Origin: Armatimonadota bacterium
Lineage (GTDB): Bacteria > Sysuimicrobiota > Sysuimicrobiia > Sysuimicrobiales > Humicultoraceae
Reading direction: 5' to 3'
DNA: 64,000 nucleotides
Assembly (NCBI GenBank): GCA_037443365.1
Contig: JBBIOM010000003.1
Coordinates: 6,942-70,941, forward strand
Both the position numbers and the translations under genes were made by a program. Positions 29,281-52,076 of the stretch are shown here, one piece after another; positions within the stretch are counted from its first letter, which is position 1, and every line of letters starts with the position of its first letter. Under the pieces are notes generated by a model. It was not told the origin of the DNA. It did not search any database and saw only the letters and a list, made by a program, of their open reading frames with translations.

Positions 29281-31053
29281 ATGGCGGTCCACGGCGAGAT
29301 ACACCGCAGCACGTACTTCGATTCCGTCGCCCTGATGCTGGCGCAGCGCGAGGCGCGCGATCTGCCCGGAGTGGAGGAAGTGGGCGTCGTCATGGCGACG
29401 GACGCCAACAAGGAGATCCTGCGCGCCGGGGGTCTTGAGTTCCCGGCCCTGGCCGGGGCGCGCCCGGACGACCTCGTGGTTGTCGCCCGGGCTGCTTCCG
29501 AGGCCGAGGCGCGGGCGGCCGTCGCCTTTGCCATCCGGGCGCTCACCAGCCGCCGCGCGCAGGGGGTGGGAGACGCCTACCGCCCCAAGTCGGTCGCCTC
29601 GGCCTCGCGCCTTGCTCCCGAGGCCACGATCGCCTTGATATCGGTTCCGGGGCGGTTCGCACACTCGGTGGCGCGCGAGGCGCTCGATGCCGGATTGCAC
29701 GTCCTGCTCTTCTCGGACAACGTGCCCATCGAGCACGAGATAGCCCTGAAGGCGCGCGCTCGTGAGCGCGGGCTGCTCGTGATGGGTCCGGACTGCGGCA
29801 CCGCGATGATTGGGGGCGGGGCGCTCGGCTTTGCCAACCGCGTGCGCGCGGGGCGCATCGGCCTGGTCGGCGCGGCCGGCACCGGGCTGCAGGAGGTCGC
29901 CTCTCTGATCCACGGGTTTGGTGGCGGGATCACGCACGCGATCGGCACCGGCGGGCGCGATCTCGCCTCGGCCGTCGGCGGCGTGACGATGCTGGCCGGC
30001 CTGCGGGCGCTGGCCCTCGATCCCGCGACCGAGGTGATCGTCCTGGTGAGCAAGCCGCCCGCGCCGGAGGTCGCCGGCAAGATCCTGGCCGCGGCCGCTG
30101 CGTGCGGCAAGCCGGTGGTTGCCTCTTTCGTCGGTGCTGTGGTGCAGCCAGCAGGGCGGGTCTGCGGCGCCTCGACCCTCGAGGAGGCTGCGCGCCTCGC
30201 GGTGCAGCAGGCCTACGGCGCCGGGGCCGCGCCGCCGCCCATGCCGCACCTGCCGGGGCAGGAGGTGGAGCGGCTCGCCGCGGGGCAGAGGTACGTGCGC
30301 GGTCTTTACAGCGGCGGCACGCTCTGCTATGAGGCGCTGGTGCTGCTGCGGGAGAGCCTGGGCCCGGTCTACTCCAACTCGCCGGTGGATCCCTCCCTGG
30401 CGCTCGAGCCGGTGACGCGCAGCCGCGAGCACTCCGTCATTGACATGGGCGGGGACGAGTTCACGCAGGGCCGTCTCCACCCGATGCTCGACCCCACCCT
30501 GCGTCTTGCGCGCCTGCGGCAGGAGGCCGCCGACCCGCAGGTCGCGGTCATACTGCTGGACGTGGTGCTGGGCTACGCTGCCCACCCTGACCCCGCCGGA
30601 GCGCTCGCGCCCGTGATAAGGGAGGTCCGCGCGCGTGCATCGAGTGAGGGACGGCACCTCATCGTCGCAGGATCGGTCTGCGGCACGGATGAAGACCCTC
30701 AGGACGCGCCCGCGCAGCGCGCGGCGCTGGTCGAGGCGGGGATGCTGGTGGCAGAGAGCAACGCCCGCGCGGTTCACCTCGCGCGTATGGCTGTCGGGCG
30801 ACAGCGGTCAAGCGAGCCCTCTTCTGCTTCTACGAGTGATGTCGTCGCCGCTGCAGCGGCGACGACGGCGTGGCCCGACGTGGGTCCGATCACCGCGATG
30901 CTCAAGGCGCGTCCCTCGGTCATCAACGTCGGGCTCGAGTTGTTCGCCGAGAGCCTGCGGGCGCAGGGGGTGCCGGTTGTATCCGTGGACTGGCAGCCGC
31001 CGGCCGGAGGAAAGCGGCACCTGCTGGACCTGCTGGACAAACTGGAGGGGTAG
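29281..31053 (+). CDS. fdrA: FdrA/AllF (succinyl-CoA synthetase alpha-like; oxamate carbamoyltransferase subunit)
   Basis: YFDSVALM, FSDNV, MGPDCGT, GTGGRDL, GLYSGGTL, GRLHPMLDP, VDWQPPAGG. Confidence 0.92.
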   Translation: MAVHGEIHRSTYFDSVALMLAQREARDLPGVEEVGVVMATDANKEILRAGGLEFPALAGARPDDLVVVARAASEAEARAAVAFAIRALTSRRAQGVGDAYRPKSVASASRLAPEATIALISVPGRFAHSVAREALDAGLHVLLFSDNVPIEHEIALKARARERGLLVMGPDCGTAMIGGGALGFANRVRAGRIGLVGAAGTGLQEVASLIHGFGGGITHAIGTGGRDLASAVGGVTMLAGLRALALDPATEVIVLVSKPPAPEVAGKILAAAAACGKPVVASFVGAVVQPAGRVCGASTLEEAARLAVQQAYGAGAAPPPMPHLPGQEVERLAAGQRYVRGLYSGGTLCYEALVLLRESLGPVYSNSPVDPSLALEPVTRSREHSVIDMGGDEFTQGRLHPMLDPTLRLARLRQEAADPQVAVILLDVVLGYAAHPDPAGALAPVIREVRARASSEGRHLIVAGSVCGTDEDPQDAPAQRAALVEAGMLVAESNARAVHLARMAVGRQRSSEPSSASTSDVVAAAAATTAWPDVGPITAMLKARPSVINVGLELFAESLRAQGVPVVSVDWQPPAGGKRHLLDLLDKLEG

Positions 31054-31057
31054 CATA

Positions 31058-32296
31058 GTGGACATCAACGCCGCGAATCAGGAAGCCCTGGGACGCGTCC
31101 TCGCTGCGCAGCCGGTCCTGGCGGGGGTCGGGCGCGCGCTCGATCTCATCCCCGGCATGACCCCGGATCTCATCCTGCACGCGGGTCCGCCCATCTCCTG
31201 GGAGCGCATGTCCGGCCCGCTGCGCGGCGCCGTGATAGGCGGGCTCATCTTCGAGGGACGGGCGCGCACCGAGGACGAGGCGGTTGCGCTTGCTGCGTCG
31301 GGAGGGGTGCGCTTCGAGCCGTGCCATCACCACGCCGCCGTGGGGCCCATGGCCGGCGTGACCACCGCCTCCATGCGGGTCTACATCATCGAGAACCGCG
31401 CGGCGGGCAACCGGGCCTTCTCCAACTTCAACGAGGGATACGGCAAGGTGCTGCGCTACGGCGCATTCAGCGAGGACGTCCTGGCGCGGTTGCGGTGGGT
31501 AAACGAGGTCCTGGCGCCGTCCGTCGGCGATGCCCTCGAGCGCGCGGGCGGCCTCGACATGAAGGCGCTGATCGCGCAGCAACTGACAATGGGCGATGAG
31601 GGCCACAACCGCAATCGGGCGGGATCGGCCATGTTTGGCCGCCTGCTCGCCCCGCACCTCGCACGGGGCGGCCTCCCGGCGGAGGTGCTCGAGCAGGTGC
31701 TGCGCTACTTCGCCGACAACGACCTGGCGGTGCTCAACCCGGTGATGGCCGCGTGCAAGGCCACGATGGACGCCGCGTGCGGGATCGCCGGCAGCACGGT
31801 CGTCACCTGCATGGCGCGCAACGGCACCGACTTCGGGATCCGGGTCTCGGGCCTGGGCGACCGATGGTTCGTCGCCCCGGCCGCGGTCCCGGTGGGGCTC
31901 TACTTCCCCGGGTTTGCGGCCCACGACGCCAACCCCGACATAGGCGACTCGACGATCACCGAGACCGCGGGCATCGGTGCATTCGCCATGGCCGCGGCCC
32001 CTGCCATCGTGAAGTTCGTGGGCGGCACGCCGGCCGAGGCCACGGCCGCGACGCTGGAGATGTACGAGATCACCGTCGGCGAGAACCCGGCCTTCGGGCT
32101 GCCGCCGCTGGACTTCCGTGGGACCCCGACCGGGGTAGACATCCGCAAGGTCGTGCGCACCGGCATCACCCCGCGCATCAACACCGGCATAGCGCACAGG
32201 ATGCCGGGCGTCGGCCAGGTGGGCGCCGGGCTCGTGCGCCCGCCCATGGCGTGCTTCGAACAGGCCCTGGAGGCAATGGCTGAACTGGCGACCTAA
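31058..32296 (+). CDS. ylbE: DUF1116 protein (YlbE/AllG)
   Basis: LHAGPP, VGPMAG, MGDEGHNRN, MARNG, DIGDSTITE, INTGIAH; GTG start. Confidence 0.92.
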   Translation: MDINAANQEALGRVLAAQPVLAGVGRALDLIPGMTPDLILHAGPPISWERMSGPLRGAVIGGLIFEGRARTEDEAVALAASGGVRFEPCHHHAAVGPMAGVTTASMRVYIIENRAAGNRAFSNFNEGYGKVLRYGAFSEDVLARLRWVNEVLAPSVGDALERAGGLDMKALIAQQLTMGDEGHNRNRAGSAMFGRLLAPHLARGGLPAEVLEQVLRYFADNDLAVLNPVMAACKATMDAACGIAGSTVVTCMARNGTDFGIRVSGLGDRWFVAPAAVPVGLYFPGFAAHDANPDIGDSTITETAGIGAFAMAAAPAIVKFVGGTPAEATAATLEMYEITVGENPAFGLPPLDFRGTPTGVDIRKVVRTGITPRINTGIAHRMPGVGQVGAGLVRPPMACFEQALEAMAELAT

Positions 32297-32339
32297 AAGA
32301 GGGCTTCCAAGGCGGACATCTCAAGGAGGTGTGCCTGGA

Positions 32340-32798
32340 ATGAGGGTGGAGGCAAGGCTCGCCGAGATGGGACTCGAGCTTCCCAGCGCGCCCAAGCCTG
32401 TTGCGAACTACGTCCGCACGGTGCGTGCCGGGAACCTGCTGTTCGTGTCGGGGCACGGCCCGTACCGCGACGGGAAACTGCAGTTCCTCGGCAAGGTCGG
32501 CGTGGACCTGACCGTGGAAGAGGGCTACCAGGCCGCCCGGCTGGTGGCGCTCAACTGCCTGGCCTCCGTGAAGGAGGCACTGGGCGACCTCGACCGCGTC
32601 AAGCGCGTGGTGAAGCTGCTGGGCATGGTCAACTGCCCGCCCGAGTTCGGGGGGCAACCCGAGGTGATCAACGGCGCCTCGGACCTGCTGGTGGAGCTCT
32701 ACGGCGACGCCGGGCGCCACGCCCGGTCGGCGGTTGGGATGAGCGCGCTCCCGCGGGGCATCGCGGTGGAGATCGAGATGGTCTTGGAAGTCGAGTAG
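32340..32798 (+). CDS. RidA/YjgF family protein
   Basis: PVANYV, NGASDLL, GRHARSAVG, VEIE; AGGAGG SD. Confidence 0.9.
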   Translation: MRVEARLAEMGLELPSAPKPVANYVRTVRAGNLLFVSGHGPYRDGKLQFLGKVGVDLTVEEGYQAARLVALNCLASVKEALGDLDRVKRVVKLLGMVNCPPEFGGQPEVINGASDLLVELYGDAGRHARSAVGMSALPRGIAVEIEMVLEVE

Positions 32799-32867
32799 GT
32801 CCTGGCCTCCCCGCCGCCGAAGAACCCCACGACGGAGCACGCTCGAACACCAGACGGAGGTGGACGG

Positions 32868-33698
32868 ATGAAGCCGTTTGACCTGTCAAGGGCACGGGTT
32901 CTGGATCTCTCGCAGAACTTCAGCGTGGACTCGCCGCCATTCGCCTACTACGAGGGGCCCACGATCAAGTGGGTGAAGAAGATGGCCTTCGAGGGCGTGA
33001 ACGCGCAGCACATCAGCAGCACCAACCACATCGCCACCCACCTCGACGCGCCGCTGCACTTCAACGATCCCGGGCCCGACGTGGCAGGGATCCCGATCGG
33101 CGACCTCGTCGGCCCGGCGTGCATCGTGGACCTGCAGCAGTTCGGGATCGGCGACTACGATATCTACGGACCGCGGCACTTCGAGGAGTGGGAGAAGAAG
33201 CACAAGACGAAGATCGAGCGCGGCGACATCCTGGTGATTCACACGGGCTATCACGCCTACTACAACGAGGACTGGTCGGAGAACACGAGGAAGCAGCATC
33301 CCGACGCCCGGCCCGACCTTCCCAGGGCGTTCCTGCGCCATCCCGGCCCGCAGGCCGAGTTCTGCGACTGGGTGCTCGACCGCGGCATCCGGTGGATGGC
33401 GGTTGACGCCATCTCGACTGACCACCCCTTCAACACCAAGGTGCGCGACGCCCGCCGCGACCTGATTCCCGAGGTGGAGGCCAAGATCGGCATGACCATG
33501 GACCAGGCGTTTCCCTGGCCGAAGGACTACCAGGCCACGCACACCCGGCTCTTCCCCAAGGGCGTGTTCCACATCGAGAACGTGGGCGGGGACGTTGACC
33601 TGGTCCTGAACAAGCGCGTGTGGATAGGCTGCTTCCCGTTCCGGTTCAAGGGCGGCGAGGCGGCGTTCTGCCGGTTCGTGGCGTTCGTGGAGGCATGA
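32868..33698 (+). CDS. Cyclase family metal-dependent amidohydrolase (kynurenine formamidase/isatin hydrolase-like)
   Basis: HIATHLDAP metal motif, GDILVIHTG, HIENVG. Confidence 0.88.
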   Translation: MKPFDLSRARVLDLSQNFSVDSPPFAYYEGPTIKWVKKMAFEGVNAQHISSTNHIATHLDAPLHFNDPGPDVAGIPIGDLVGPACIVDLQQFGIGDYDIYGPRHFEEWEKKHKTKIERGDILVIHTGYHAYYNEDWSENTRKQHPDARPDLPRAFLRHPGPQAEFCDWVLDRGIRWMAVDAISTDHPFNTKVRDARRDLIPEVEAKIGMTMDQAFPWPKDYQATHTRLFPKGVFHIENVGGDVDLVLNKRVWIGCFPFRFKGGEAAFCRFVAFVEA

Positions 33699-34903
33699 CG
33701 GCCGAACCGGGAGGCGCGGTGGCGCCTCTCGACGGTCTCCTCGTACTAGACCTGACCCGGGCCCTCGCGGGCCCGTACTGCACCCTCATGCTGGCGGACA
33801 TGGGGGCCCGGGTCATCAAGGTCGAGACCCCCGACGGCGGAGATGACACGCGCGGCTGGGGGCCGCCGTTCATCCAGGGCGAGAGCACATACTTCCTGTG
33901 CATCAACCGCAACAAGGAGAGCCTGACCCTCAACCTCAAGCACCCCGACGCGCAGCGGGCTCTCTGGAGGCTCATCGAGCGCGCCGACGTGCTGGTTGAG
34001 AACTTCCGGCCGGGCGTGATGGAACGCCTCGGCTTCGGCTACGATGCTGTGCACGAGGCCAACCCCCGCCTTATCTACGCGTCGGTCTCCGGGTTCGGGC
34101 AGGACGGCCCGTACCGCGAGCGCGTGGCCTACGATCTGATCCTGCAGGGCATGGGCGGGTTGATGGGGACGACCGGCGAGGAGGGCGGCCCGCCCGTCAA
34201 GATTGGGGTGGCGGTCACCGACATCGCGGCCGGCATGTTCGCGGCGTACGGCGTTGTCGTGGCGCTGCAGGCGCGGGCCCGCACCGGCGTGGGGCAGCTG
34301 GTGGACGCCTCGATGCTCGACAGCCAGGTCGCCTGGATGACCTATCAGGCCGGCGCGTACTTCGCGACAGGGGAGAACCCGAAGCGGCTGGGCACCGCGC
34401 ATCCCTCGCTGGTGCCTTATCAATCGTTCGCGACAAGCGACGGATACGTGAACCTGGCGGTGGGCAGCGAGGCCATCTGGGGGCGGTTCGTCGTGGCCGT
34501 GGACGCGCCGCACCTGGCCGACGACCCCCGGTTTCGCACCAACGCCGACCGAGTCCGCCATCGCGATGAGCTCATCGCCTTGCTGGAGCCGGTCCTTGCG
34601 CAAAGGACGATGGCCGAATGGTCGGCCGTCTTCGAATCGGCCGGCGTGCCGGCGGGCCCGATCTACCAGATGTCCGACCTGTTCGGCGACCCCCAGGTGC
34701 GCCACCGACGGCTGGTTGTTGAGATGGAGCATCCCAAGGCCGGCCTGATCAGGCAGACCGGTGTTCCCGTCAAGCTCTCGGCGACCCCGGGGCGCGTTGC
34801 CTCGCCGCCGCCGCTGCTGGGGCAGCACACGGATGCGATTCTGCAGGAGCTCGGCTACGACGCCGATGCGATTGGAGGCATGCGCCGCGCTGGCGCGATC
34901 TGA
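33695..34903 (+). CDS. Family III (CaiB/BaiF/Frc) CoA-transferase
   Basis: LDLTRALAGP, NRNKES, ENFRPG, SGFGQDGP, catalytic D in VTDIAAG; ATGA overlap. Confidence 0.93.
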   Translation: MTAEPGGAVAPLDGLLVLDLTRALAGPYCTLMLADMGARVIKVETPDGGDDTRGWGPPFIQGESTYFLCINRNKESLTLNLKHPDAQRALWRLIERADVLVENFRPGVMERLGFGYDAVHEANPRLIYASVSGFGQDGPYRERVAYDLILQGMGGLMGTTGEEGGPPVKIGVAVTDIAAGMFAAYGVVVALQARARTGVGQLVDASMLDSQVAWMTYQAGAYFATGENPKRLGTAHPSLVPYQSFATSDGYVNLAVGSEAIWGRFVVAVDAPHLADDPRFRTNADRVRHRDELIALLEPVLAQRTMAEWSAVFESAGVPAGPIYQMSDLFGDPQVRHRRLVVEMEHPKAGLIRQTGVPVKLSATPGRVASPPPLLGQHTDAILQELGYDADAIGGMRRAGAI

Positions 34904-34927
34904 GACCCGGAGTCGGGAGGCACTGCC

Positions 34928-36688
34928 ATGCCTGAAGCCGAACGCTGCCCGGAGTGCCAGACCCAGACCCCGCGCGGCACACTGCGGGCCGGACTCTGGA
35001 TCTGCCCTTCGTGCGGGTGGCATCTTTCCATGCCGGCCCGCGACCGCATCGAATCCCTGGCCGATCCGCGGACATTCAGGGAGCTCGCCCGGGGCCTGGT
35101 GTCGGTGGACCCGCTCAAGTTCACGGACCAGCACGCCTACCGGGCGCGGCTGCTCGACGCGCGCAGGCAGACCGGGCTGCGCGAGGCCGTGGTGACGGGC
35201 ACCGCCCGGATAGACGGGCTGCCGGTGGTCCTCGCCGTGTTCGACTTCGCGTTTCTCGGCGGGACCATGGGCTCGGCGGTGGGCGAGAAGATCGCCGACG
35301 CGTTCGAGGTCGCCACGCGGCGCAGGTGGCCGGTTGTCACGGTCACCTCCAGCGGCGGCGCCCGGATGCAGGAAGGGATGCTCTCGCTGATGCAGATGGC
35401 CAAGACCGCGGCGGCGCGAGGGCGCCATCACGCCGCGGGATTGGCGCACATCTCGGTGCTCGCCCACCCGACCTTCGGGGGCGTGGCCGCGAGCTTCGCC
35501 TCCCTGGGCGACGTGCTGGTCGCCGAGCCAGGGGCGCACATCGGGTTCATCGGGCCGCGCGTCATCGAGGCGACCATCGGCGAGACCCTGCCGCCGGGTT
35601 CGCACCGCGCCGAGCGGCTCTTCGCCGGCGGCATGGTGGACATGCTGGTCAGCCGGCGCGCATTGCGCGAGGCGGTATCGGGCCTTGTGCGCCACCTGAG
35701 GCGCCCCGCGCGGGCGCGCAGGGCCGCCAATGCGCCGCCTGCCCGCGCGGCCTCAATCGCGCCGGAGCGTTCGGCATGGGAGATCGTGCAGATCGCGCGG
35801 CGGCCCGACCGGCCGACCGCGCTCCTCTACATCCAGAAGCTGATCTCGCGGTTCGTAGAGCTGCACGGCGATCGCCAGTTCGGCGACGACCCGGCCACCG
35901 TTGGCGGGATCGGCGAGTTCGACGGCCAGACCGTGGTCGTGGTCGGTCAGGAGCGCGGCGCCACGCAGGAGGAGGCAGGCGCGCGCCACCGGGGCATGGC
36001 CCGCCCTGAGGGGTACCGCGAGGCGCTACGCCTGATGAACCTGGCCGCCAAGTTCCGCCTGCCGCTCGTGACCCTCATTGACACCCCGGGCGCCTACCCG
36101 GGATACGAATCCGAGCAGAGGGGGATCGCGCAGGCGCTGGCGCACGACCTGCAGGCGATGGCGCTCCTGCCCACACCGGTCGTGGCGGTGGTCATCGGTG
36201 AGGGCGGGAGCGGAGGCGCCCTGGCCCTGGCCGTGGGCGATCGCGTGATGATGCTGGAGAACGCGTACTTCTCGGTCATCTCGCCCGAGGGTGCCGCGGC
36301 CATCCTCTACCGTGACGTCGCGCGCGCCGAGGATCTCGCGGCCGCGCTCAAGATGACCGCATCCGACCTGCTGAGGCTGGGCGTCATTGACGAGATCGTG
36401 CCCGAGCCGGCGGGCGGCGCACACGTGGATCCGGATGCCGCGGCCGAGTCGGTGCGCCGCCACCTGCGCGCGGCGCTGGGGTCGCTCTGTCCTCAATCCC
36501 CGGAGAAGCTGCTGCACCGGCGTTACCGCAAGTACCGGCAGATCGGGCGCGTGGGCGCCTACTGGCGAGAGGTGGTGCTTGGGGAGGTAGCGGACGCGCT
36601 GGAGACGCTCGAGCGCCGGATGCCGCGCCGCAGGAGCGCCGCGCGGCCGGACCAGGCGTCCGCGGAGGCCGGGCGACGGCCCGGCTGA
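34928..36688 (+). CDS. accDA: Fused carboxyltransferase beta-alpha (AccD-AccA)
   Basis: Zn ribbon CPEC...CPSC, GGARMQEG, ELHGDR, DTPGAYPG, GEGGSGGA. Confidence 0.92.
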   Translation: MPEAERCPECQTQTPRGTLRAGLWICPSCGWHLSMPARDRIESLADPRTFRELARGLVSVDPLKFTDQHAYRARLLDARRQTGLREAVVTGTARIDGLPVVLAVFDFAFLGGTMGSAVGEKIADAFEVATRRRWPVVTVTSSGGARMQEGMLSLMQMAKTAAARGRHHAAGLAHISVLAHPTFGGVAASFASLGDVLVAEPGAHIGFIGPRVIEATIGETLPPGSHRAERLFAGGMVDMLVSRRALREAVSGLVRHLRRPARARRAANAPPARAASIAPERSAWEIVQIARRPDRPTALLYIQKLISRFVELHGDRQFGDDPATVGGIGEFDGQTVVVVGQERGATQEEAGARHRGMARPEGYREALRLMNLAAKFRLPLVTLIDTPGAYPGYESEQRGIAQALAHDLQAMALLPTPVVAVVIGEGGSGGALALAVGDRVMMLENAYFSVISPEGAAAILYRDVARAEDLAAALKMTASDLLRLGVIDEIVPEPAGGAHVDPDAAAESVRRHLRAALGSLCPQSPEKLLHRRYRKYRQIGRVGAYWREVVLGEVADALETLERRMPRRRSAARPDQASAEAGRRPG

Positions 36689-36845
36689 GGACCCGGCAGG
36701 GAACTAGCAGACAGCGTCGAACGGTTCGGCGATCCCGGAAGGCGGCAGATAGGCACAAGCACGCGACCGGGGCGTCACTTGGTGGAGAGGGGGTGGAAGC
36801 GAAAGTCAGGATGGGCGGATTCTGACCACGAAGGGAGGCGGATGA

Positions 36846-38267
36846 GTGGCAACAGAGGTTAAGAGGGGAGAGTTGATCTACTCTGTCGACGACATCCCGC
36901 AACCGTTCAGCAGGGCCTTCTTCCTGGGTGTTCAGCACGTCCTGACAATGTTTGGCGCAACGGTCTCGGTCCCGCTCCTCCTGGGGCCGGCCATGGGGAT
37001 GACCCAGGCACAGATCGCGACGCTGGTCGGATCTGTCATGCTCGCTTCCGGGGTTGTCACCCTGCTCCAGGTGCACTGGGGGTCCCGGCTGCCCATCGTG
37101 CAGGGAGTCTCGTTCTCGTTCCTCGGTCCGTTCTTCGCCATCATCGGCGCTCACAAGGCGCACGGTGGCCCGGTCGTCATGCAGTACATCGCCGGCGCCA
37201 TCATGACCGGCAGCTTCGTCGAGATGGCGGTCGGTCACTTCCGCTGGATCGGCAAGCTGCGCCGCGTGATCAGCCCCGTGGTGATCGGCCCGGTCATCAT
37301 GCTGATAGGCCTGGCCCTGTTCAAGGTCGGTGCCCCCAAGGCGGGCGCCTACTGGCCGATGGCCGCGCTCGTCATCTTCTGCATATTCTGGTTCTCACAG
37401 TTCCTCTCGCGCGGCAGCCTCGTCTTCCGGTTGTTCCCCATCCTGCTGGCCGTCGCCGTCGGGTGGGTGGTGTCGTACTTCTTCAGCGCGATCGGCACCT
37501 TCGGCCCCAACCATCCCTCCTACGTGGGCCTGCAGGTGGTGCGGGAGGCAGCGTGGTTCCGGCCGCCTTGGGGAGAGGGCATCGGCTGGATCTTCCCGTG
37601 GGGTCTTCCCAAGTTCAGCCTGGCCTTCTTCCTTGCGATCCTGGCCGGCTATCTCGCCTCCATGATCGAGTCGTTTGGTGACTACCACTCGGTCTCGTAC
37701 ATGAGCCGGCTCCCGGACCCCAGCGAGGACACGATCAACAAGGGGATCCGCGCCGAGGGCGTGGGGTGCTTCTTCACCGGCCTGTTCGGTGGATTCGCCA
37801 GCACGAGCTACTCCGAGAACATCGGGCTGATCGGGATAACGCGGGTCGCCAGCCGCTACGTGGTGACCATCGGCTCCTTCGTCCTGATCTTCCTGGGTGT
37901 CTTCGGCAAGTTCGGCGCACTCGCCGCGACGCTACCCGGGCCTGTGGTGGGCGCGATGTACTGCGCGCTCTTCGGGCTCATCGCGGCCATCGGCGTGCAG
38001 CAGGTGGCGCGCTGCGATCTTCGCAGCGACCGCAACCTGCTGATCATCGGGTTCTCCCTCTTCATGGGCCTGAGCCTCCCGGCGTACTTCACGGGCGTTC
38101 CGGAGCTCGAGTTCGCGGCCCAGAAGGTCGTCATCACCTGGGCGCCCTGGCTCGCCGACATGATCAACATCGTCGGGTCCACGGGCATGGCGGTTGCCGC
38201 GATATTCGGGCTTGTCCTGGACAACCTGCTGCCAGGGACTCTGGAGGAGCGGGGAATCAGGAGCTAG
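36846..38267 (+). CDS. NCS2 nucleobase:cation symporter (xanthine/uracil permease family)
   Basis: QH motif in TM1, IESFGD, SYSENIGLIGITRVASR signature. Confidence 0.93.
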   Translation: MATEVKRGELIYSVDDIPQPFSRAFFLGVQHVLTMFGATVSVPLLLGPAMGMTQAQIATLVGSVMLASGVVTLLQVHWGSRLPIVQGVSFSFLGPFFAIIGAHKAHGGPVVMQYIAGAIMTGSFVEMAVGHFRWIGKLRRVISPVVIGPVIMLIGLALFKVGAPKAGAYWPMAALVIFCIFWFSQFLSRGSLVFRLFPILLAVAVGWVVSYFFSAIGTFGPNHPSYVGLQVVREAAWFRPPWGEGIGWIFPWGLPKFSLAFFLAILAGYLASMIESFGDYHSVSYMSRLPDPSEDTINKGIRAEGVGCFFTGLFGGFASTSYSENIGLIGITRVASRYVVTIGSFVLIFLGVFGKFGALAATLPGPVVGAMYCALFGLIAAIGVQQVARCDLRSDRNLLIIGFSLFMGLSLPAYFTGVPELEFAAQKVVITWAPWLADMINIVGSTGMAVAAIFGLVLDNLLPGTLEERGIRS

Positions 38268-38305
38268 GCGTGATCGAGCCGGGAAAGTGCCCGGCGCAGT
38301 GCACG

Positions 38306-38339
38306 TCGCGGGGGCTGCCCTCTTGGGGAGCCCCCGCGA
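38306..38339. terminator. GC-rich stem-loop between convergent NCS2 and katG genes (possible terminator)
   Basis: TCGCGGGGG...CCCCCGCGA perfect 9-bp arms plus inner pairing; no clear U-tract. Confidence 0.45.
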
Positions 38340-38519
38340 ATCCTTCCAGCCAGCCCGGCGGCGTGCTTTGGATTGCCCTCATTGGCGAGCCGTCCTCGCT
38401 TGTTCTCCGCTGGGCCACAGCACTGATTGCTCAGCCCATCACTCACCGCATCCGTGCGGGCCTGCCATGGACAGCAGGCTCCACCCACTTGGGAGCCCCT
38501 GAATGTGCTTACGCCATGG

Positions 38520-41226
<2,707 letters not shown>

Positions 41227-41284
41227 GCGCACCCCCTTGCGCTCTGCAGGCTTCACGCCGTGGAAGCCCCCTGCCCTCAGGTAT

Positions 41285-41305
41285 CCATATTCATAATGAG
41301 TATGG
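41285..41305. promoter_or_regulatory. AT-rich 10-1-10 palindrome, candidate Fur/PerR operator
   Basis: CCATATTCAT-A-ATGAGTATGG with one mismatch, about 60 bp upstream of the Fur-family gene. Confidence 0.7.
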
Positions 41306-41341
41306 TTTTCTGGATCAGCATGCCAGATCGTCGCGGTCCCG

Positions 41342-42214
41342 TCAAGAGTGTGACGCCGGTCCGCGCTGCAGTGCCACCACCGAGGCCAGGATGAGTAGCG
41401 CGCCGGCGATCGCACGCCCCGCAAGCGCTTCTCCCAGCAGCGCCGCCGCGAACACCGCGGCAACCGCCGGCTCGACAGTCGCGGTCAGGCTGGCGGACCG
41501 GCTATCGATGAAGCGCAATCCGTAGAGGAACAGGGCGAACGGCAGCACGGTAGCGAACACCACAATGAAGAGGAGCAAGCCCCACTCGCCCGGTGTGAAC
41601 GGAAGCAGGTATACACGCCAGGGCGGCGTGTGTAGGCTCCAGAGGATCGAACCCACCAGCAACCCGTAGAACAGCATGTGCCACGGATCCACGGTGCGGG
41701 CACGTGAGCGTCCCATCAGGATCCAGCCCGCGAAGCCTAGCGCCGAGGCGATCCCTGACGCGACCGCGGCTGGCGAGACAGCGAGCCCGTGCGATCCCGC
41801 CACGAGCAAGTAGCCGCCAGCGATCACGCCCGCGAGGCAGGCCGCCTGCATTGCGTGTAGGCGTTCGCGGTGCACCACGGCCGTGTAGGCAACCACCAGC
41901 GCTGGCGCCGTGTACTGCAGAAAGATTGCCGTCGCAACATCGGCCAGGCTGATGGTCAGGTAGTACATCGACTGGGAAACGACCATTGCGACGCCCAGGG
42001 GGATCAACCGGAGCACCACGACCCACGGTAACCTCACCGAGCGCCCCTGTGCCCACAACGCAGTCGCGGTCAGCACCAGGCCCGCGGTCACGCGTATCTC
42101 GACCACCGCCGCGGGAGTGATCGTCCCGCGGTTGAACAGGGCCTTGGCCACCACACCGGCGATGCCCCACAATGAGGCCGCGGCAAGCACGGCCGCGTAT
42201 CCCCGCAGGCGCAT
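41342..42214 (-). CDS. EamA/DMT family transporter
   Basis: About 10 TM helices, LWG, LQYTAP, TVEPAVA. Confidence 0.88.
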   Translation of the reverse strand: MRLRGYAAVLAAASLWGIAGVVAKALFNRGTITPAAVVEIRVTAGLVLTATALWAQGRSVRLPWVVVLRLIPLGVAMVVSQSMYYLTISLADVATAIFLQYTAPALVVAYTAVVHRERLHAMQAACLAGVIAGGYLLVAGSHGLAVSPAAVASGIASALGFAGWILMGRSRARTVDPWHMLFYGLLVGSILWSLHTPPWRVYLLPFTPGEWGLLLFIVVFATVLPFALFLYGLRFIDSRSASLTATVEPAVAAVFAAALLGEALAGRAIAGALLILASVVALQRGPASHS

Positions 42215-43111
42215 CTAGGGCTCGACCCTGTCCCAGGCCCAGCAGAAGCCGGTCAGGGCGTCGGCGCCCGAGGTTTCGCCGATACCCAGTATCCGCCGCG
42301 CGGCCGCGCGTGCGGCGCCGGGTCCCTCACCGATCCCGCGCGCAAGCCCATGCCAGGGCGCCGAGCCCCAGCCCTGGCGAGCGGCTTCCAGGTAGGCCGC
42401 GCTGATGCGGGTGGTGCGCGGGATCGCGGCGCCGACCAGTGTGTCTCTGGCCTGAGACACCCCACCGGCCGCGCTAGCCAGGGAGGGCCACAGCGTAAGC
42501 GCGTGAACGATTCCCACGAGGAGGTCGTCCCCTGCCGGGGTCAACCCAGGCCCTCGCCCGGCCATGCGGGAGGCCACCGCGCCGGCAACCGCCCGCGCGC
42601 TGCTCTTCCCAGAAAGGAACGCGGCGATGGCTTCTAAACCGGATGACAGTTCCGGCAGGATGCCCCCCTGGGCGCCCAGGTTCGATCGAGGCGCGTCGGA
42701 GCCAAGTTCCGCACGGACCGCGGCACGCGCGCACTTCACCAGCCCCGGCGCGAGGTCCTGGCGCAGGGGAGGAAGGGCCGGATCCCAGACGCGCGCGCTC
42801 CCAAGATCCACCGCGCCCTGTCCGATCCGCAGCCTGCCGTCCCCCAGCGAGACCGGTTCGCCTGGGGCGATCGGACCCAGCGATGAGAATCCATCCACAC
42901 CGATCGTGAACGGCGCTGGCTCGAGATCACTCGATGTCAGCGCGAGGATTCGGCCGTCCAGATCCAGGTAGGCGCTCCGCTCGAACGCGGCCAACACTAC
43001 TCCGGCCGCGCTGGACGCCCGGAGGCCCTCCAGCGGCGCGGCGATGAGCCCGGCACGAATTGCGCGGGTGGCTGCGATGTGCGCAACGACGGGCGATCGT
43101 GATGGGGTCAT
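42215..43111 (-). CDS. ylbF: DUF2877 protein (YlbF/AllH)
   Basis: GRGPGLTPAGDDLLVG, TTRISAAYL, IGETSGAD; ATGA-type overlap with coxS. Confidence 0.88.
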   Translation of the reverse strand: MTPSRSPVVAHIAATRAIRAGLIAAPLEGLRASSAAGVVLAAFERSAYLDLDGRILALTSSDLEPAPFTIGVDGFSSLGPIAPGEPVSLGDGRLRIGQGAVDLGSARVWDPALPPLRQDLAPGLVKCARAAVRAELGSDAPRSNLGAQGGILPELSSGLEAIAAFLSGKSSARAVAGAVASRMAGRGPGLTPAGDDLLVGIVHALTLWPSLASAAGGVSQARDTLVGAAIPRTTRISAAYLEAARQGWGSAPWHGLARGIGEGPGAARAAARRILGIGETSGADALTGFCWAWDRVEP

Positions 43112-43644
43112 TCCACTCCTGTGGCCTTCACCGCCTCCACGATCGCCGCGTATCCCGTGCACCGGCACAGATGCCCGCCGAGCACTTCTCGTATGGCCGC
43201 ATCGGAAGGCCGGGGTGTGCTTTGCAGGAGCGCGTGCATGCTCATAAGTACCCCGGGTGTGCAGAACCCGCACTGCAGCGCGTGGTGTTGCGCAAACGAC
43301 TGCTGCAGGGGGGAAAGCGCGTTGGGCTCGCCCAGCGCCTCGACCGTGGTGACCTCAGCGCCGTCGGCCTGCACCGCGAACAGCAGGCACGACCTGACCG
43401 GCGCTCCATCCAGCAGCACTGTGCAGGCCCCGCAGACGCCGTGCTCGCACCCCAGGTGCGTCCCGGTCAGGCCCAGATCCTCGCGCAGGAAGTCGGCCAG
43501 GGTGCGCCGCACCTCCACCGTCCTTGAGACCTCGCTTCCGTTGACGCGTAGCCGGATCGTTGCCTGGCCGGCCGGTGCCCTGCGCCGCGCGCGGGGCCGC
43601 GTCTTGCGAGGGGTGGTGATTCCTTCAGAGGGGTTGCTGCTCAT
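43108..43644 (-). CDS. Mo-hydroxylase (2Fe-2S) small subunit
   Basis: [28 protein letters not shown]. Confidence 0.93.
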   Translation of the reverse strand: MSSNPSEGITTPRKTRPRARRRAPAGQATIRLRVNGSEVSRTVEVRRTLADFLREDLGLTGTHLGCEHGVCGACTVLLDGAPVRSCLLFAVQADGAEVTTVEALGEPNALSPLQQSFAQHHALQCGFCTPGVLMSMHALLQSTPRPSDAAIREVLGGHLCRCTGYAAIVEAVKATGVE

Positions 43645-44519
43645 CGTCGTTGCTCCCGGATACGCCCGGCTGCCTGCATGATGGCCCGGCCTGCCAGCAC
43701 GCCGGCGACATGTCGCCTGTAGGCCGCAGTCGCGTGTATGTCAGAGGGAGGATCGAGCCGGTGCTGCGCCGCGCGCATCGCCTCGGCCACGCTTGCTTCG
43801 GTAACCTCCTTGCCCAGGAGCGCCTGCTCGGCCTCGGGCACGCGGACCGGCCCCGGCCCCACTCCTGTGAAGACGAGGCGGGCGCTGCTACACCGCCGGT
43901 CGCCGTCCTGCTCCAGGACTGCGGCCACGCCCGCAAGGGCGAAGTCACCGTGTCGCCTGGCGATCTCGAGAAAGGCCCACCCCGCGCCCGGCGTGAGCGC
44001 GGGCAGGCGCACCTCGGTCAGCAATTCGTCGGGTTCCAGGGCGGTGGTCAGATAGCCCGCGAAGAACTGCTCGCAGTCAAGCACACGTTCCCCGCGTACG
44101 CTGGCAAGCACGAAGCGCGCGTCCAGGGCCGCCGCCGCGGCGGGCAACTCCGAGGAGGGGTCGGCGTGCGCCAGGCTTCCGCCGATCGTGCCGCGCGCGC
44201 GGATCTGCGGGTGTCCGATGCATCGCGTGGCCTCGGCCAGCAGGGGGATCCGCCGGGCGACGCCGCGGTGGGTCTCCACCGTCTGCTGGCGCGTCATCGC
44301 GCCGATCGCAAGCCCCCCTTCGAAGGGGCGGATGAAGGCCAGGTCCCTTATCCGGTTCAGATCCACGATCACCGCCGGGCGCGCCAGGCGCATCGCCAGC
44401 AGCGGCACAAGGCTCTGCCCGCCTGCCAGCGCCTTTGCTTCTGTGCCGAACTCGGCCAGGGCCTCCAGCGCCTCCAGGCGTCGCCGGGGCGCCAGGTACT
44501 CGAAGGGTCCGGGCTTCAC
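43641..44519 (-). CDS. Mo-hydroxylase FAD-binding medium subunit
   Basis: AGGQSL, GTIGGSLAHADP, RRHGDFA, DIHATAAYR. Confidence 0.93.
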   Translation of the reverse strand: MKPGPFEYLAPRRRLEALEALAEFGTEAKALAGGQSLVPLLAMRLARPAVIVDLNRIRDLAFIRPFEGGLAIGAMTRQQTVETHRGVARRIPLLAEATRCIGHPQIRARGTIGGSLAHADPSSELPAAAAALDARFVLASVRGERVLDCEQFFAGYLTTALEPDELLTEVRLPALTPGAGWAFLEIARRHGDFALAGVAAVLEQDGDRRCSSARLVFTGVGPGPVRVPEAEQALLGKEVTEASVAEAMRAAQHRLDPPSDIHATAAYRRHVAGVLAGRAIMQAAGRIREQRR

Positions 44520-46864
44520 GATGGCACGCTCCGATCTCCTGCCTGGGAGCCTGTTTCCTGCAGCAACTCCAGCAATCGCGTGTGCGAAAGGGGCATCTGG
44601 GCCACTCGCGTCCCCAGCGCATCGTCCAGGGCCGAGGCGAACACCGCTGTCGCCGGGATCACGCCGGCCTCGCCGGCGCCCTTCACGCCCAGCGGGTTAA
44701 GCGGGGAAGGGGTCTCCACGTGCCCTATCTCGGCCTTCGGGACCTCGGCCGCGGTCGGCAGCAGGTAGTCCATGAAGGTCTGCGTCAGGAGCTGGCCGTC
44801 CTCGTCATACACCAGGGCCTCGTAGAAGGCGCCGCCGATGCCCTGGGCCACGCCGCCCTGGATCTGCCCGTCCAGGATCATCGGGTTGATCACGGTGCCG
44901 CAGTCGTGGACGACAACGTACCGCTCGACGCGCACCGCTCCCGTATCCCTGTCGACCTCAAGGATCGCGGCGTGACACCCGCCGGCGAAGCTGCCCCGCG
45001 GCGGCGCGAAGTAGCGCGCGGCCTCCAGCCCCGGTCCTTCCCATTCCTTCGGGATGGTTCCGCGGAGCGGGTTGGCGGCCGTCGCGACCTCGCCCAGCGT
45101 AACCGATCGCGCAGGGGCTCCGCGCACGAAGATCTTCCCATCGGCAATCTCGAGGTCGTCGGGCCCCGCTTCCAGCAACCCCGAGGCAACCATGAGCGTC
45201 TTCTCGCGCACGGCCCTGGCCGCCAGCGCCACCGCGCTGCCCGCCACGACCGCAGAGCGGCTCGCGAATGTTCCGGTGCCCCACCCGAAGGCCGCGGTGT
45301 CGCCTGTAGTGACGGTGACGTCGCGCACATCCACGCCCAGGGCGTCCGCGATTATCTGCGCGAACACGGTGAAGTGCCCCTGGCCCTGTGTGCCTACGCT
45401 CGTGGCCGCGAACACCTTGCCCGTTGACTCGACCGTGACGCGGCACCCCTCGTACGGGCCGATGCCGGTGCCCTCCACGTAGAGCGCCAGCCCCAGCCCA
45501 AGGGTGCGGCCTGCCCTGCGCGCCGCGGCCTGGCGCTCTGGCCAACCCGCGTAGTCAATCATCTCGAGGGTCTTGTCGAGCACGGCCGGGTAGTTGCCGC
45601 TGTCGTAGATGAGCGGCGCGTTGTCCTGGTAGATCAGCCCGGTATCGTAGGGGAACTCATGCGGCTGGATCAGGTTGCGGCGGCGCACCTCCGCGCGGTC
45701 TATGCCCAGTTCGCGCGCCACCCGGTCCATCAGGCGCTCCATGATGAAGACGCCGTGAGGCCGCCCGGCCCCGCGGTAGGGGCTCACCTGGGTCTTGTTA
45801 GTGAATACCGCCCGGAACTCGCAGTGGTAGTTGGGGATCTTGTACGGGCCAACCAGGGTGGTGCTGGCGACGATGGGTACGATCAGGCCGTAGGCGATGT
45901 AGGCGCCGGCGTCGTGCAGGAAGACCGTTCGTACGCCCAGGATCCGGCCCTCGCCGTCCACGGCGATCTGTACGTCGTGGATCTGCTCGCGCTCCTGGTT
46001 CGTGGCCACGAAGTTCTCACGCCTGTCCTCGATCCACTTGACGGGCCGGCCCAGGCGCATCGCGGCAAGCGGCACCAGGATCTCCTCGGGGTAGAACATC
46101 ATTATCTTGGGCCCGAACCCACCGCCCACGTCGGGCGCAACCACGCGCACGTTGTTCTGGGGCAGGCCGAACAGCCGCGCCAGCCCGTTGCGTATCGGGA
46201 TGGGCGACTGCGTCGAGTCGTAGATGACCAGATTGCGCAGGCGCCCGTCCCATATCGCCAGGATCCCGCGCGTCTCCATGGAGGCGGCCGTGCCGCGGTC
46301 CATGCGGATCCTCTCGGAGAAGACGTGCGGGGCACACGCGAAGGCACCCTCGGGGTCGCCCACCCGCTGGGTGTAGTGCGCGGCCACGTTGGTCCCGGCG
46401 TCCTCGTGGACCAGCGGGCTCTCGGGCCTGATGGCGGCCTCGAGGTCCACAACGGCCGGAAGCGGCTCGTACTCCACCTCGATGGCCTCCAGGGCGTCCT
46501 CGGCCAGGTAGCGGCTCTCGGCCACCACGAACGCCACGGGCTCGCCGACATGGCGGACGACCTCCCCGGCCAGGGCGACCTGGGTCTTGTGGTGGATCAG
46601 TGTCGGGTGGGGAATGAGCCTAGGCAGCGGATCCCCGAGCGGCGGCGGGAGGTCGGCGCGCGTGTAGACCGCGACGACCCCGGGGATAGCCCGGGCACCG
46701 GAGGCGTCAATGCGCACGATCCTGGCGCGGGCGTGCGGACTTCGGAGCACCGCCCCGTGCAGCAGGTTGGGCGGCTGGATGTCGTCCACGAAGGTGCCCC
46801 TGCCCGTCAGCAGCCGGGGGTCCTCGACCCTCCGGACGCGCTCGCCGAACCACCGCGTCCCCAT
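44516..46864 (-). CDS. Mo-hydroxylase molybdopterin large subunit (form II CoxL-like)
   Basis: RVEDPRLLTG, VGGGFG, PYRGAGR loop, QGQGH, GVKGAGE catalytic Glu; start moved to ATG 46864. Confidence 0.93.
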   Translation of the reverse strand: MGTRWFGERVRRVEDPRLLTGRGTFVDDIQPPNLLHGAVLRSPHARARIVRIDASGARAIPGVVAVYTRADLPPPLGDPLPRLIPHPTLIHHKTQVALAGEVVRHVGEPVAFVVAESRYLAEDALEAIEVEYEPLPAVVDLEAAIRPESPLVHEDAGTNVAAHYTQRVGDPEGAFACAPHVFSERIRMDRGTAASMETRGILAIWDGRLRNLVIYDSTQSPIPIRNGLARLFGLPQNNVRVVAPDVGGGFGPKIMMFYPEEILVPLAAMRLGRPVKWIEDRRENFVATNQEREQIHDVQIAVDGEGRILGVRTVFLHDAGAYIAYGLIVPIVASTTLVGPYKIPNYHCEFRAVFTNKTQVSPYRGAGRPHGVFIMERLMDRVARELGIDRAEVRRRNLIQPHEFPYDTGLIYQDNAPLIYDSGNYPAVLDKTLEMIDYAGWPERQAAARRAGRTLGLGLALYVEGTGIGPYEGCRVTVESTGKVFAATSVGTQGQGHFTVFAQIIADALGVDVRDVTVTTGDTAAFGWGTGTFASRSAVVAGSAVALAARAVREKTLMVASGLLEAGPDDLEIADGKIFVRGAPARSVTLGEVATAANPLRGTIPKEWEGPGLEAARYFAPPRGSFAGGCHAAILEVDRDTGAVRVERYVVVHDCGTVINPMILDGQIQGGVAQGIGGAFYEALVYDEDGQLLTQTFMDYLLPTAAEVPKAEIGHVETPSPLNPLGVKGAGEAGVIPATAVFASALDDALGTRVAQMPLSHTRLLELLQETGSQAGDRSVPS

Positions 46865-48658: not shown

Positions 48659-48662
48659 GCGC

Positions 48663-49598: not shown

Positions 49599-49614
49599 TG
49601 CGGGAGGGGCTTCG

Positions 49615-50586: not shown

Positions 50587-50596
50587 GGGGCCGAAA

Positions 50597-52061: not shown

Positions 52062-52076
52062 TTGCCGGAGCAGGAG

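Follow-up and report, generated by a model that had tools for sequence, protein, structure and literature searches.

Two convergent operons as a candidate catabolic unit for a ureide-containing N-heterocycle in a hot-spring bacterium

The window analysed here is a stretch of 64,000 nucleotides from the genome of a hot-spring bacterium (2.2 Mb, 69 contigs, 97.7% complete), in which positions 29281-46864 carry two convergent operons. The plus-strand operon encodes two proteins of the AllFGH type, a cyclase-family hydrolase, a coenzyme A (CoA)-transferase, a fused carboxyltransferase and a nucleobase permease. The minus-strand operon encodes a three-subunit molybdenum hydroxylase (CoxLMS) and the third AllFGH-type protein. 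The nearest AllG loci lie in metagenome-assembled genomes labelled Candidatus Fervidifonticultor and Sysuimicrobiota (CSP1-3). Window genes were called by Pfam and NCBIfam model searches, and bit scores were compared with the model cut-offs. An earlier note on this DNA had proposed an N-heterocycle pathway. All genes named in it were recovered where it had placed them, and only a Fur/PerR-like regulator and KatG lie between the two halves. Judged from sequence, the whole cluster is best explained as a single unit that breaks down a ureide-containing N-heterocycle, the most likely substrate being uracil and/or thymine, and we regard this explanation as reasonably probable.

Genes of the two operons

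The plus-strand operon begins with AllF (29281-31053, 590 aa), an FdrA-type, succinyl-CoA-synthetase-alpha-like subunit that carries PF02629 and PF00549 and scores 539.3 bits on NF004760 (cut-off 433). AllG (DUF1116; 31058-32296, 412 aa; PF06545, 305.9 bits) has a GTG start at 31058, 4 nt past the AllF stop, with a GGAGGGG ribosome-binding site ahead of it. After a Rid/YjgF-family gene (32331-32798, 155 aa; PF14588, 104.8 bits) comes the cyclase-family metal amidohydrolase (32868-33698, 276 aa), which scores 114.8 bits on PF04199, above the cut-off of 23.1. The metal motif of this family is HxGTHxDxPxH; the window protein has HIATHLDAPLH, with A where the family has G, and this motif aligns with solved cyclase-family and kynurenine formamidase chains. 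Across the order, the cyclase is 79-95% identical.

The start of the CoA-transferase family III gene (33695-34903, 402 aa; PF02515, 467.5 bits) at 33695 overlaps the cyclase stop (ATGA), and the closest NCBIfam models of its product are dicarboxylate CoA-transferases, every one below cut-off. The fused AccD-AccA carboxyltransferase (AccDA; 34928-36688, 586 aa; PF01039 and PF03255) has an N-terminal AccD-type zinc ribbon and scores 370.6 bits on the AccA model (cut-off 357) and 309 bits on the AccD model (cut-off 317.45). Its matches to the MdcD and MdcE models are weak (65.4 bits against a cut-off of 228 and 57.5 bits against 237), so that it falls outside both families. The housekeeping genes for AccD, AccA and the biotin carboxyl carrier protein sit apart on contig C24, and the AccDA of the cluster appears to be a second, fused carboxyltransferase of the acetyl-CoA carboxylase (ACC) type. 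An NCS2 nucleobase permease with the signature ENIGLIGITR (36846-38267, 473 aa; PF00860) completes this half.

The minus-strand operon begins with the molybdenum hydroxylase large subunit CoxL (44516-46864, 782 aa; PF01315, PF02738 and PF20256). It is followed by the flavin adenine dinucleotide (FAD) subunit CoxM (43641-44519; PF00941 and PF03450), the [2Fe-2S] small subunit CoxS (43108-43644; PF01799 and PF00111), AllH (DUF2877; 42215-43111, 298 aa; PF11392, 73.9 bits) and, as the final gene, an EamA/DMT transporter (41342-42214, 290 aa; PF00892). CoxL/CoxM, CoxM/CoxS and CoxS/AllH overlap by four bases each (GTGA or ATGA), the last being the start/stop overlap of DUF2877 with coxS that the earlier note had seen, and the EamA ATG comes immediately after the AllH stop. 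Because of these overlaps and the abutting EamA gene, coxL-coxM-coxS-allH-eamA was considered one tightly coupled operon. The third AllFGH-type subunit is co-translated with the hydroxylase and not with AllF and AllG; allG is encoded on the opposite strand, 9.9 kb away from allH. In relatives, EamA orthologues also occur beside AllH or the cluster.

CoxL scores 1035.9 bits on NF040766 (cut-off 950), a model named aerobic carbon monoxide dehydrogenase (CODH) group 5. Its nearest solved relatives are CODH (8UEM), quinoline 2-oxidoreductase (1T3Q) and 6-hydroxypseudooxynicotine dehydrogenase (7DQX), with phmmer scores of 497-545 bits, and true xanthine dehydrogenases are distant from it. The identity of the window CoxL to cluster-linked CoxL of other phyla is 52-76%, against at most 42.5% to the paralogues in its own genome. 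The CoxL of Thermomicrobium roseum (47%) was considered as an orthologue and rejected, since its context differs (PxpA-type carboxylase genes). The motif AYxCSFR is that of form-I CODH, and motifs of the AYRGAGR type are those of form II. The window CoxL has the form-II-like motif PYRGAGR (codons at window positions 45373-45390). This motif was found in two CoxL-like genes of the genome, one on contig C3 and one at the end of contig C6, and AYxCSFR was found in no reading frame of the whole genome. In the available part of PMC11962464 (2025), all CSP1-3 genomes are said to encode aerobic CODH, and the lack of the form-I motif in this genome sequence does not fit that statement.

The model name and the published statement would both suit a reading in which two unrelated operons happen to face each other, with CoxLMS acting as a CO or aldehyde dehydrogenase and AllFG as an orphan pair. 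The two genes that separate the halves would suit it as well. These are KatG (38520-40715, minus strand; PF00141), a catalase-peroxidase, and a Fur/PerR-like regulator (40762-41226, minus strand, 154 aa; named after the earlier note and from reading the translated open reading frame), which is 115 bases from the EamA gene. The motifs of CoxL already speak against such a reading, as does the translational coupling of AllH to CoxS, and the conservation described below bears on it further.

Among the relatives of the three AllFGH-type proteins, E. coli AllFGH alone has been characterised. In E. coli, fdrA, ylbE, ylbF and ybcF are adjacent, as seen in NC_000913.3, and the oxamate carbamoyltransferase activity that the earlier note had given for FdrA/YlbE/YlbF is reported in the available part of PMC11326118. 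There, the purified proteins interconvert oxalurate plus phosphate and carbamoyl phosphate plus oxamate, function in vivo requires each of the three genes, and tagged AllF co-purifies AllG. Identity of the window proteins to those of E. coli is 51% for AllG (YlbE), 37.5% for AllF (FdrA) and 34% over 101 residues for AllH. Motifs such as GRxHPMxD are shared by no fewer than 95% of the 56 AllF sequences compared, that of E. coli among them. AllG belongs to the same family as the uncharacterised structure PDB 3CLQ (E 1e-123), and its predicted model matched 3CLQ with a TM-score of 0.94 and no other fold. AllH has the invariant motifs GxGxGLTPxGDD and GxTSGAD (21 sequences), and its predicted model (predicted local distance difference test, pLDDT, 89.4) combines a beta-barrel with a helical bundle; no PDB fold matched it at E <= 0.001.

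Two other assignments were considered and dropped. AllH as a ribokinase/ThiM-like kinase had been suggested by its GDD-type motifs, and its predicted model is without a PDB match at that threshold. AllG as a succinyl-CoA-synthetase-beta-like partner of AllF was abandoned because its model matches only its own family, 3CLQ. In a MAFFT alignment of AllF with the SucD of the genome, the phosphohistidine loop of SucD was not placed on a conserved AllF histidine. A search for AllH fused within longer proteins found none, which is weak evidence.

All three AllFGH families (PF02629 with PF00549, PF06545 and PF11392) are present in the genome. AllF and AllH are each present as a single copy, with no further gene found for either. 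A second AllG paralogue lies at a contig end (C60:4-1239, minus strand), downstream of an oligopeptide-type ABC transporter, and is 52% identical to that of the window. In three relatives (G014, G031 and G038), the AllG paralogue adjoins a different molybdenum hydroxylase, and in G038 SsnA-like amidohydrolases as well.

Conservation of the cluster

The closest 80 AllG loci were surveyed in species-representative genomes, and the window proteins were mapped onto them. The loci are labelled Sysuimicrobiota/'Armatimonadota', Chloroflexota (mostly Anaerolineales), Bacillota and Acidobacteriota, which makes at least four named phyla, and the set also holds a few probably mis-binned contigs. Counts were drawn from tblastn and hidden Markov model (HMM) searches; antisense open reading frames in high-GC DNA spoil clustering by open reading frame. 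Of the 60 loci that extend 2 kb or more upstream of AllG, 53 have AllF on that side within 1.5 kb. Where at least 2.5 kb of downstream sequence was available (64 loci), the locus contained a cyclase-family gene in 52 cases, in 43 of them no more than 2.5 kb away. One or more Cox subunits were found in 19 of the 29 loci flanked by 8 kb or more on each side, and this count is conservative because the CoxS of the window itself is 10.8 kb from AllG.

The cluster occurs in several arrangements, including contiguous ones. In the type of the window (type A), two loci (L036 and L040) have AllF-AllG-cyclase-CoA-transferase-AccDA converging straight on AllH-CoxS-CoxM-CoxL, with no katG between, and a relative of the same genus (G006) has the window layout minus katG and fur. 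The CoA-transferase and AccDA genes adjoin one another in this type. The Anaerolineales arrangement (type B) consists of CoA-transferase, AllF, CN-hydrolase, AllG, a double cyclase, NmrA, CoxM-CoxS-CoxL, CoxG and a Bmp binding protein. A third arrangement (type C) has CoxM, CoxS, amidase, AllF, AllG, cyclase, CoxL and AllH, and one locus (L054) is contiguous as CoxM-CoxS-AllF-AllG-cyclase-CoxL. Compact forms also occur within the order (G035 and G038). Genes for an amidase, a CN-hydrolase or Amidohydro_3 recur among the other variants. The Amidohydro_3 gene (422 aa) lies within the cluster in several relatives (L104:7488 in G006, L107:17869 in G028, L116:11983 in G014, and L013-L023). In G006, it stands between the cyclase and Rid genes, where the window has 69 bases and lacks the gene.

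The phyletic sample comprised 39 relatives, two unpublished genomes being left out. AllG, cyclase and AllH are all present in 30 of them and all missing in three (completeness 89, 99 and 98%), with partial sets in the other six. In five of these six, the genome is incomplete (completeness 72-85%) or contaminated (8%); the sixth (G032), at 96% completeness, has AllG only, at 57% identity. Where pairs of the three genes share a contig, they are 0.9-37 kb apart.

The arrangement is thus far beyond chance and recurs across phyla. KatG and the Fur-like gene were found in none of the 80 loci, and KatG was absent from 17 regions of relatives as well; accordingly, these two genes were considered a local insertion outside the pathway. 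Linkage kept across phyla, the existence of contiguous forms and the lack of katG and fur in the 80 loci and in the regions fetched from relatives all stand against two unrelated facing operons, which we consider highly improbable. The two convergent operons very probably form one functional unit, and the conserved linkage whose lack would have told against the earlier proposal is strong, including genomes in which both halves are contiguous.

Related clusters outside these loci were sought in a plasmid collection with an AtzD-family protein, the window CoxL and the window AllG. The cultured actinomycete Embleya sp. NBC_00888 (NZ_CP108785.1) has a matching cluster within approximately 43 kb. 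This region comprises CoxD-like, XdhC, AllG (55%), AllF (45%), AllH, PucR, NCS2, CoxM-CoxS-CoxL (CoxL 53%) and CoxG genes, together with a CN-hydrolase (50% to that of type B), an AtzD/barbiturase-family ring-opening amidohydrolase (498 bits) and a carbamate kinase. It further includes an AccDA-like carboxyltransferase (39%), a CoA-transferase III (46%), NmrA, a second PucR, an NCS1 permease and an Amidohydro_3 that is 52% identical to that of the relatives of the window. No cyclase gene was found in the region, which makes the cyclase the one absent member of the set, and the two PF04199 genes of the record are more than 2.5 Mb off. The AtzD family opens barbiturate and cyanurate. Its member in Embleya appears to take the place of the cyclase as a non-orthologous replacement, which is the strongest line of argument for barbiturate. 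A minimal set was found in Nonomuraea gerenzanensis, namely AllH-AllF-AllG followed by PucR, NCS2, NCS2 and CoxM-CoxS-CoxL (53%).

An enterobacterial plasmid operon was inspected in one record (NZ_CP154588.1:124956-134972, L134). It contains a hypothetical gene, an AtzD-family ring-opening amidohydrolase, NCS2, DUF2877, FdrA, DUF1116 and carbamate kinase, with a LysR gene also present, and it is mobile and flanked by IS26. Among the matches listed, at least 12 accessions are common to the AtzD and AllG plasmid searches. The plasmid AllG is 54.5% identical to that of the window, against 47.8% to the chromosomal AllG of E. coli, and the plasmid AllF is 43.9% identical to that of the window. On its own, this operon would seem sufficient to derive ATP from a trioxo ring (cyanurate or barbiturate). 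Like the window, it combines a ring opener and a nucleobase permease with AllHFG; unlike the window, it is without a molybdenum hydroxylase, a CoA-transferase and a carboxyltransferase, its ring opener is of another family, its permease motif is Q-type, and carbamate kinase is in the operon. In nitrifiers, allFGHK is placed beside biuret and triuret hydrolases in the available part of PMC12625717 (2025). Together, these contexts suggest that AllFGH-type enzymes act right after ring opening or on acylureas in general, and the AllFGH of the window probably carries out acylurea phosphorolysis downstream of ring opening.

Substrate, proposed route and alternatives

The NCS2 permeases carry the signature [Q/E/P]NxGxxxxT[R/K/G], in which E as the first residue is uracil-type. 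This rule was checked on E. coli, where UraA (ENIGVMAITR) and RutG (ENIGVMAVTK) begin with E, and XanQ and UacT begin with Q. The motif of the window permease is E-type, as are those of two other loci (L013 and L049, ENIGL(I/V)G(I/L)TR) and of Embleya and Nonomuraea (ENIGVMAATR/K). The scores of the window permease on the UraA and RutG equivalog models are far below cut-off, so that membership in those exact families is unsupported. The pairing of a dicarboxylate-type CoA-transferase with an acetyl/malonyl-CoA carboxyltransferase fits malonate, which corresponds to C4-C5-C6 of a pyrimidine, and does not fit oxalate or glyoxylate from purines. With the E-type motif and the AtzD-family replacement in Embleya, the uracil-to-barbiturate version of the earlier proposal has independent evidence in its favour, and we incline slightly towards uracil or thymine as the substrate, degraded via barbiturate.

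The proposed route is as follows. The base would be taken up by the NCS2 permease, and CoxLMS, form-II-CoxL-like and not a CODH, would hydroxylate C6 to give barbiturate or 5-methylbarbiturate. The cyclase-family metal amidohydrolase would then open the ring to the N-acylurea ureidomalonate, a step that classically belongs to barbiturase. AllF-AllG-AllH and phosphate would cleave the acylurea to carbamoyl phosphate and malonamate. The amide would have to be converted to malonate, for which the neighbouring asparaginase-family and Amidohydro_3 genes are candidates, the two operons being without a dedicated gene. The CoA-transferase would yield malonyl-CoA, which AccD-AccA would decarboxylate to acetyl-CoA as a CoA-based counterpart of malonate decarboxylase, and carbamoyl phosphate would enter biosynthesis or reach a distant carbamate kinase. 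The Rid protein has no role in this route.

Since oxalurate is the sole proven AllFGH substrate, a route through oxalurate has to be weighed. In this alternative, the hydroxylase and the cyclase would yield oxalurate, for example from a five-membered ureide (parabanate or a different purine-derived ring), AllFGH would act as a true oxamate carbamoyltransferase, and the CoA-transferase would turn oxalate, formed from oxamate, into oxalyl-CoA. The sizeable, sub-threshold scores of the CoA-transferase on CoA:oxalate and formyl-CoA transferase models agree with it, and the amidase and CN-hydrolase genes of other variants could be oxamate amidases. The carboxyltransferase, however, belongs to enzymes with an established chemistry on malonyl-type thioesters, not oxalyl-CoA, and an oxalyl-CoA decarboxylase was not seen in the cluster. 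The AtzD family is known for six-membered trioxo rings only, and it is a member of this family that substitutes for the cyclase in Embleya. The E-type permease motif also disagrees with a purine origin.

The genome background bears on the same question. As the earlier note had stated and searches confirmed, the window is without allantoinase, AllC, AllD, barbiturase and carbamate kinase; AllE is missing from it as well. In the whole genome, no allantoinase was found above cut-off, the best match (260.8 bits against 357.85) being a dihydropyrimidinase, which reaches 540.9 bits with the model of its own family. Proteins resembling AllC and AllD stay below the cut-offs of their models, and E. coli AllE gave no tblastn match. 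Canonical allantoin genes elsewhere, which the earlier note had named as evidence that would speak against its proposal, were thus not found in a genome that is 97.7% complete, and oxalurate from allantoin is not the feed. The AtzD/barbiturase family (PF09663) gave no match in the genome, nor in the controls, and the same search finds the family in 3 of 94 genomes of the phylum. In the genome-wide search that had been proposed, allB, allC, allD and AtzD/barbiturase were not found above cut-off; carbamate kinase was, on contig C12. Urease was not found in the genome.

Contig C12 (1-25000; L097 and L098) carries a separate purine-type cluster that resembles the ygeW-ygfT region of E. coli. It comprises two NMT1 binding proteins, two PALP enzymes, two YgeW/OTCase-like transcarbamylases, the carbamate kinase, an XdhD-like fused Fe-S/Mo subunit, an SsnA-like amidohydrolase (39% to E. 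coli SsnA), a luciferase-like monooxygenase, an M20 peptidase, a second hydroxylase and an adenine deaminase. This cluster appears to be the one that deals with purines, and the location of the purine genes in a separate cluster, together with the missing allantoin genes, is a further argument against the oxalurate route, which we consider unlikely.

A hydrolytic, Rut-like route would employ every gene of the window including Rid and would require no missing amidase. The cyclase would convert uracil to ureidoacrylate, AllFGH would release carbamoyl phosphate and 3-aminoacrylate, Rid would give malonic semialdehyde, and CoxLMS would oxidise this to malonate, which would proceed via malonyl-CoA to acetyl-CoA. 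The second-best NCBIfam model of CoxL, glyceraldehyde dehydrogenase (687 bits, below cut-off), would suit the oxidation of an aldehyde, and RutC of E. coli is a Rid-family 3-aminoacrylate deaminase according to its annotation and the available part of PMC8113886. However, the Rid gene is present in only 6 of the 80 loci, while amidase, CN-hydrolase and Amidohydro_3 genes recur, and the Rid/YjgF protein is a lineage-specific accessory. E. coli RutC gave no tblastn match on the contig of the window, and the window Rid gene is not the best RutC match of the genome. Moreover, Embleya has, in place of the cyclase, a barbiturase-family enzyme, which needs an oxidised ring, and the nearest solved relatives of CoxL include N-heterocycle hydroxylases. 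We consider this route decidedly unlikely.

The domains of AllF raise another alternative, since it has CoA-binding and CoA-ligase domains and NCBI names FdrA an acyl-CoA synthetase. A heteroaromatic carboxylate would then be activated by AllF/AllG, the molybdenum enzyme would hydroxylate the CoA ester (cf. furoyl-CoA dehydrogenase), the cyclase would open the ring, and AccDA would decarboxylate. A sub-threshold match of CoxL to 4-hydroxybenzoyl-CoA reductase and the linkage of the CoA-transferase in 25 of the 80 loci are in line with such a CoA-thioester route. On the other hand, the purified E. coli enzyme is a transcarbamylase that was assayed without CoA, as given in the available part of PMC11326118. 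In E. coli, Embleya, L049 and the enterobacterial plasmids, carbamate kinase is encoded in the operon or cluster itself, and the linked transporters are of nucleobase or nucleoside types (NCS2, Bmp and NCS1). This route was judged quite improbable. None of the alternatives fits the replacement in Embleya and the malonyl-type end as well as the route from uracil or thymine via barbiturate.

Several points weigh against the route via barbiturate. We infer every chemical step of it from sequence, and we know of no cyclase-family enzyme that opens barbiturate. No reference sequence for uracil/thymine dehydrogenase (EC 1.17.99.4) was found for comparison with CoxL. The window permease is 27-31% identical to all four E. 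coli proteins, an identity that does not discriminate purine from pyrimidine types; its best NCBIfam model is a xanthine permease subfamily, below cut-off, and its residues in transmembrane helix 8 (ESFGD) are XanQ-like. The substitution in Embleya is seen in a single genome, and instead of a barbiturase, the AtzD-family protein there could be a cyanuric acid hydrolase. None of the 80 AllG loci was found to hold an AtzD-family gene. In the phylum, AtzD/barbiturase-family genes occur in genomes of a single family, at G038:C156:24786-25871, G079:C19:6202-7287 and G071:C116, and in G038 and G079 no gene of the cluster was found beside them.

Further points concern single components. AllH was found by HMM in only 10 of the 80 loci, and tagged E. 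coli AllH alone retained neither AllF nor AllG in the available part of PMC11326118. Among the loci with full flanks, the CoA-transferase was found in 12 of 29 and AccDA in 6 of 29, which makes them accessory to the core. By its model scores, AccDA looks like a genuine biotin-dependent ACC carboxyltransferase, and no biotinyl domain or biotin carrier was found inside the cluster; the carrier may come from elsewhere in the genome. Neither operon has an amidase, and the best homologue of the relatives' Amidohydro_3 in the host genome is 35% identical. The only carbamate kinase above cut-off in the genome (372 bits, cut-off 358) is that of contig C12, unlinked to the window cluster, and carbamate kinase lies within the locus in just 1 of 80 cases. 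Finally, a dihydropyrimidinase/D-hydantoinase (540.9 bits, cut-off 393) adjoins a carbamoylase-type CN-hydrolase on contig C13 (16209-18470; L120). Another route for pyrimidines or hydantoins may therefore exist, and the pair could belong to a reductive pyrimidine or hydantoin pathway.

A divergent plus-strand operon (47723-55866; Pfam and NCBIfam, with CoxG by tblastn) borders the cluster. Two tandem PHO4 phosphate transporters (Pfam) lie within the block that starts at 47723, which also carries an asparaginase-family amidohydrolase (49615-50586), a CoxG-like gene (50701-51123), a second, orphan CoxM-like FAD subunit (51159-52061), a CoxD/MoxR-like AAA gene (52062-53027) and an XdhC and MobA-like fusion (54163-55866). 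Just past the block, on the minus strand, is an Amidohydro_3 gene (55874-57478). The genes of the block likely have maturation and accessory functions. It also flanks CoxL in G006, and PHO4 stands beside CoxL in G014 as well; the adjacency of phosphate transporters to a proposed phosphorolytic pathway is possibly meaningful. Farther off in the window, a lone CoxS-like [2Fe-2S] gene (12346-12810, plus strand; 49% to the cluster CoxS) is surrounded by acyl-CoA synthetase and FabH-like genes and has neither an L nor an M partner in its vicinity.

Taken jointly, these parts would make up a phosphorolytic oxidative pyrimidine pathway. CoxLMS would be the uracil/thymine dehydrogenase, the cyclase a non-homologous barbiturase, AllFGH general acylurea phosphorylases for oxalurate, ureidomalonate and perhaps biuret-type compounds, and the CoA-transferase with AccD-AccA a two-protein malonate decarboxylase, possibly with a biotin-independent AccD-AccA. 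Such a pathway would be widespread in uncultured Chloroflexota, Sysuimicrobiota and Bacillota and would also occur in cultured actinomycetes. This joint proposal is offered tentatively, and we incline somewhat against its holding in every part. No published description of the cluster, of a uracil/thymine dehydrogenase gene or of a cyclase-family barbiturate hydrolase was found in a search that left most subscription journals outside its scope, and the literature search for ureidomalonate or malonamate enzymes gave nothing relevant.

If the proposal is true, a substrate would be assigned to a form-II CoxL clade that is routinely annotated as aerobic CODH and that, for this phylum, was read as CO oxidation in all members in the available part of PMC11962464. 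It would also point to genes that may encode uracil/thymine dehydrogenase and to a barbiturate ring opener of a second, unrelated kind. The role of AllFGH would widen from an enterobacterial allantoin step to a general means by which organisms that lack urease conserve the nitrogen and energy of ureides in the form of carbamoyl phosphate. As matching clusters are present in the cultured Embleya sp. NBC_00888 and Nonomuraea gerenzanensis, the reading is directly testable.

Comparison with known systems

The classical oxidative pyrimidine pathway of Rhodococcus and related aerobes uses uracil/thymine dehydrogenase, barbiturase of the AtzD family and ureidomalonase. The proposed route would share barbiturate, ureidomalonate and a malonyl unit with it and would start with a three-subunit molybdenum hydroxylase. 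A cyclase-family hydrolase would replace the AtzD-family barbiturase. Whereas the classical pathway hydrolyses the ureide to urea, the window enzymes would cleave it with phosphate to carbamoyl phosphate, and malonate would be handled as a CoA ester via a CoA-transferase and a fused carboxyltransferase.

Compared with E. coli allFGHK, the window has all three protein families, and the reaction type would be the same, namely N-acylurea phosphorolysis to carbamoyl phosphate and an amide, with ureidomalonate probably taking the place of oxalurate as the substrate. In contrast to E. coli, the genes are split over two operons, allH is coupled to coxS, and carbamate kinase is not in the cluster. The allantoin context is lacking; the linked genes are instead those of a molybdenum hydroxylase and of a cyclase-family hydrolase.

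The hydroxylase is like form II CoxL-type enzymes in its L-M-S architecture, its YRGAGR-type motif and its passing of NF040766. It differs from CODH in lacking the form-I AYxCSFR, and its gene context points to an N-heterocycle substrate. The cyclase shares HxxTHxDxPxH with the PF04199 relatives kynurenine formamidase and isatin hydrolase, which are amide hydrolases, isatin hydrolase opening a cyclic amide. These relatives match the window protein weakly, the best solved chain at E 2.6e-13 and isatin hydrolase at approximately 1e-4. Biotin-independent malonate decarboxylase (MdcA, MdcD/MdcE) combines a malonate-loading transferase with an AccD/AccA-like decarboxylating pair, and the window enzymes would do likewise. 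In the window, MdcA, the acyl carrier protein and the biotin carrier are absent from the cluster, the carrier would be CoA instead of a dedicated acyl carrier protein, and the fusion scores as ACC-type, its AccA half being above cut-off, and not as Mdc-type.

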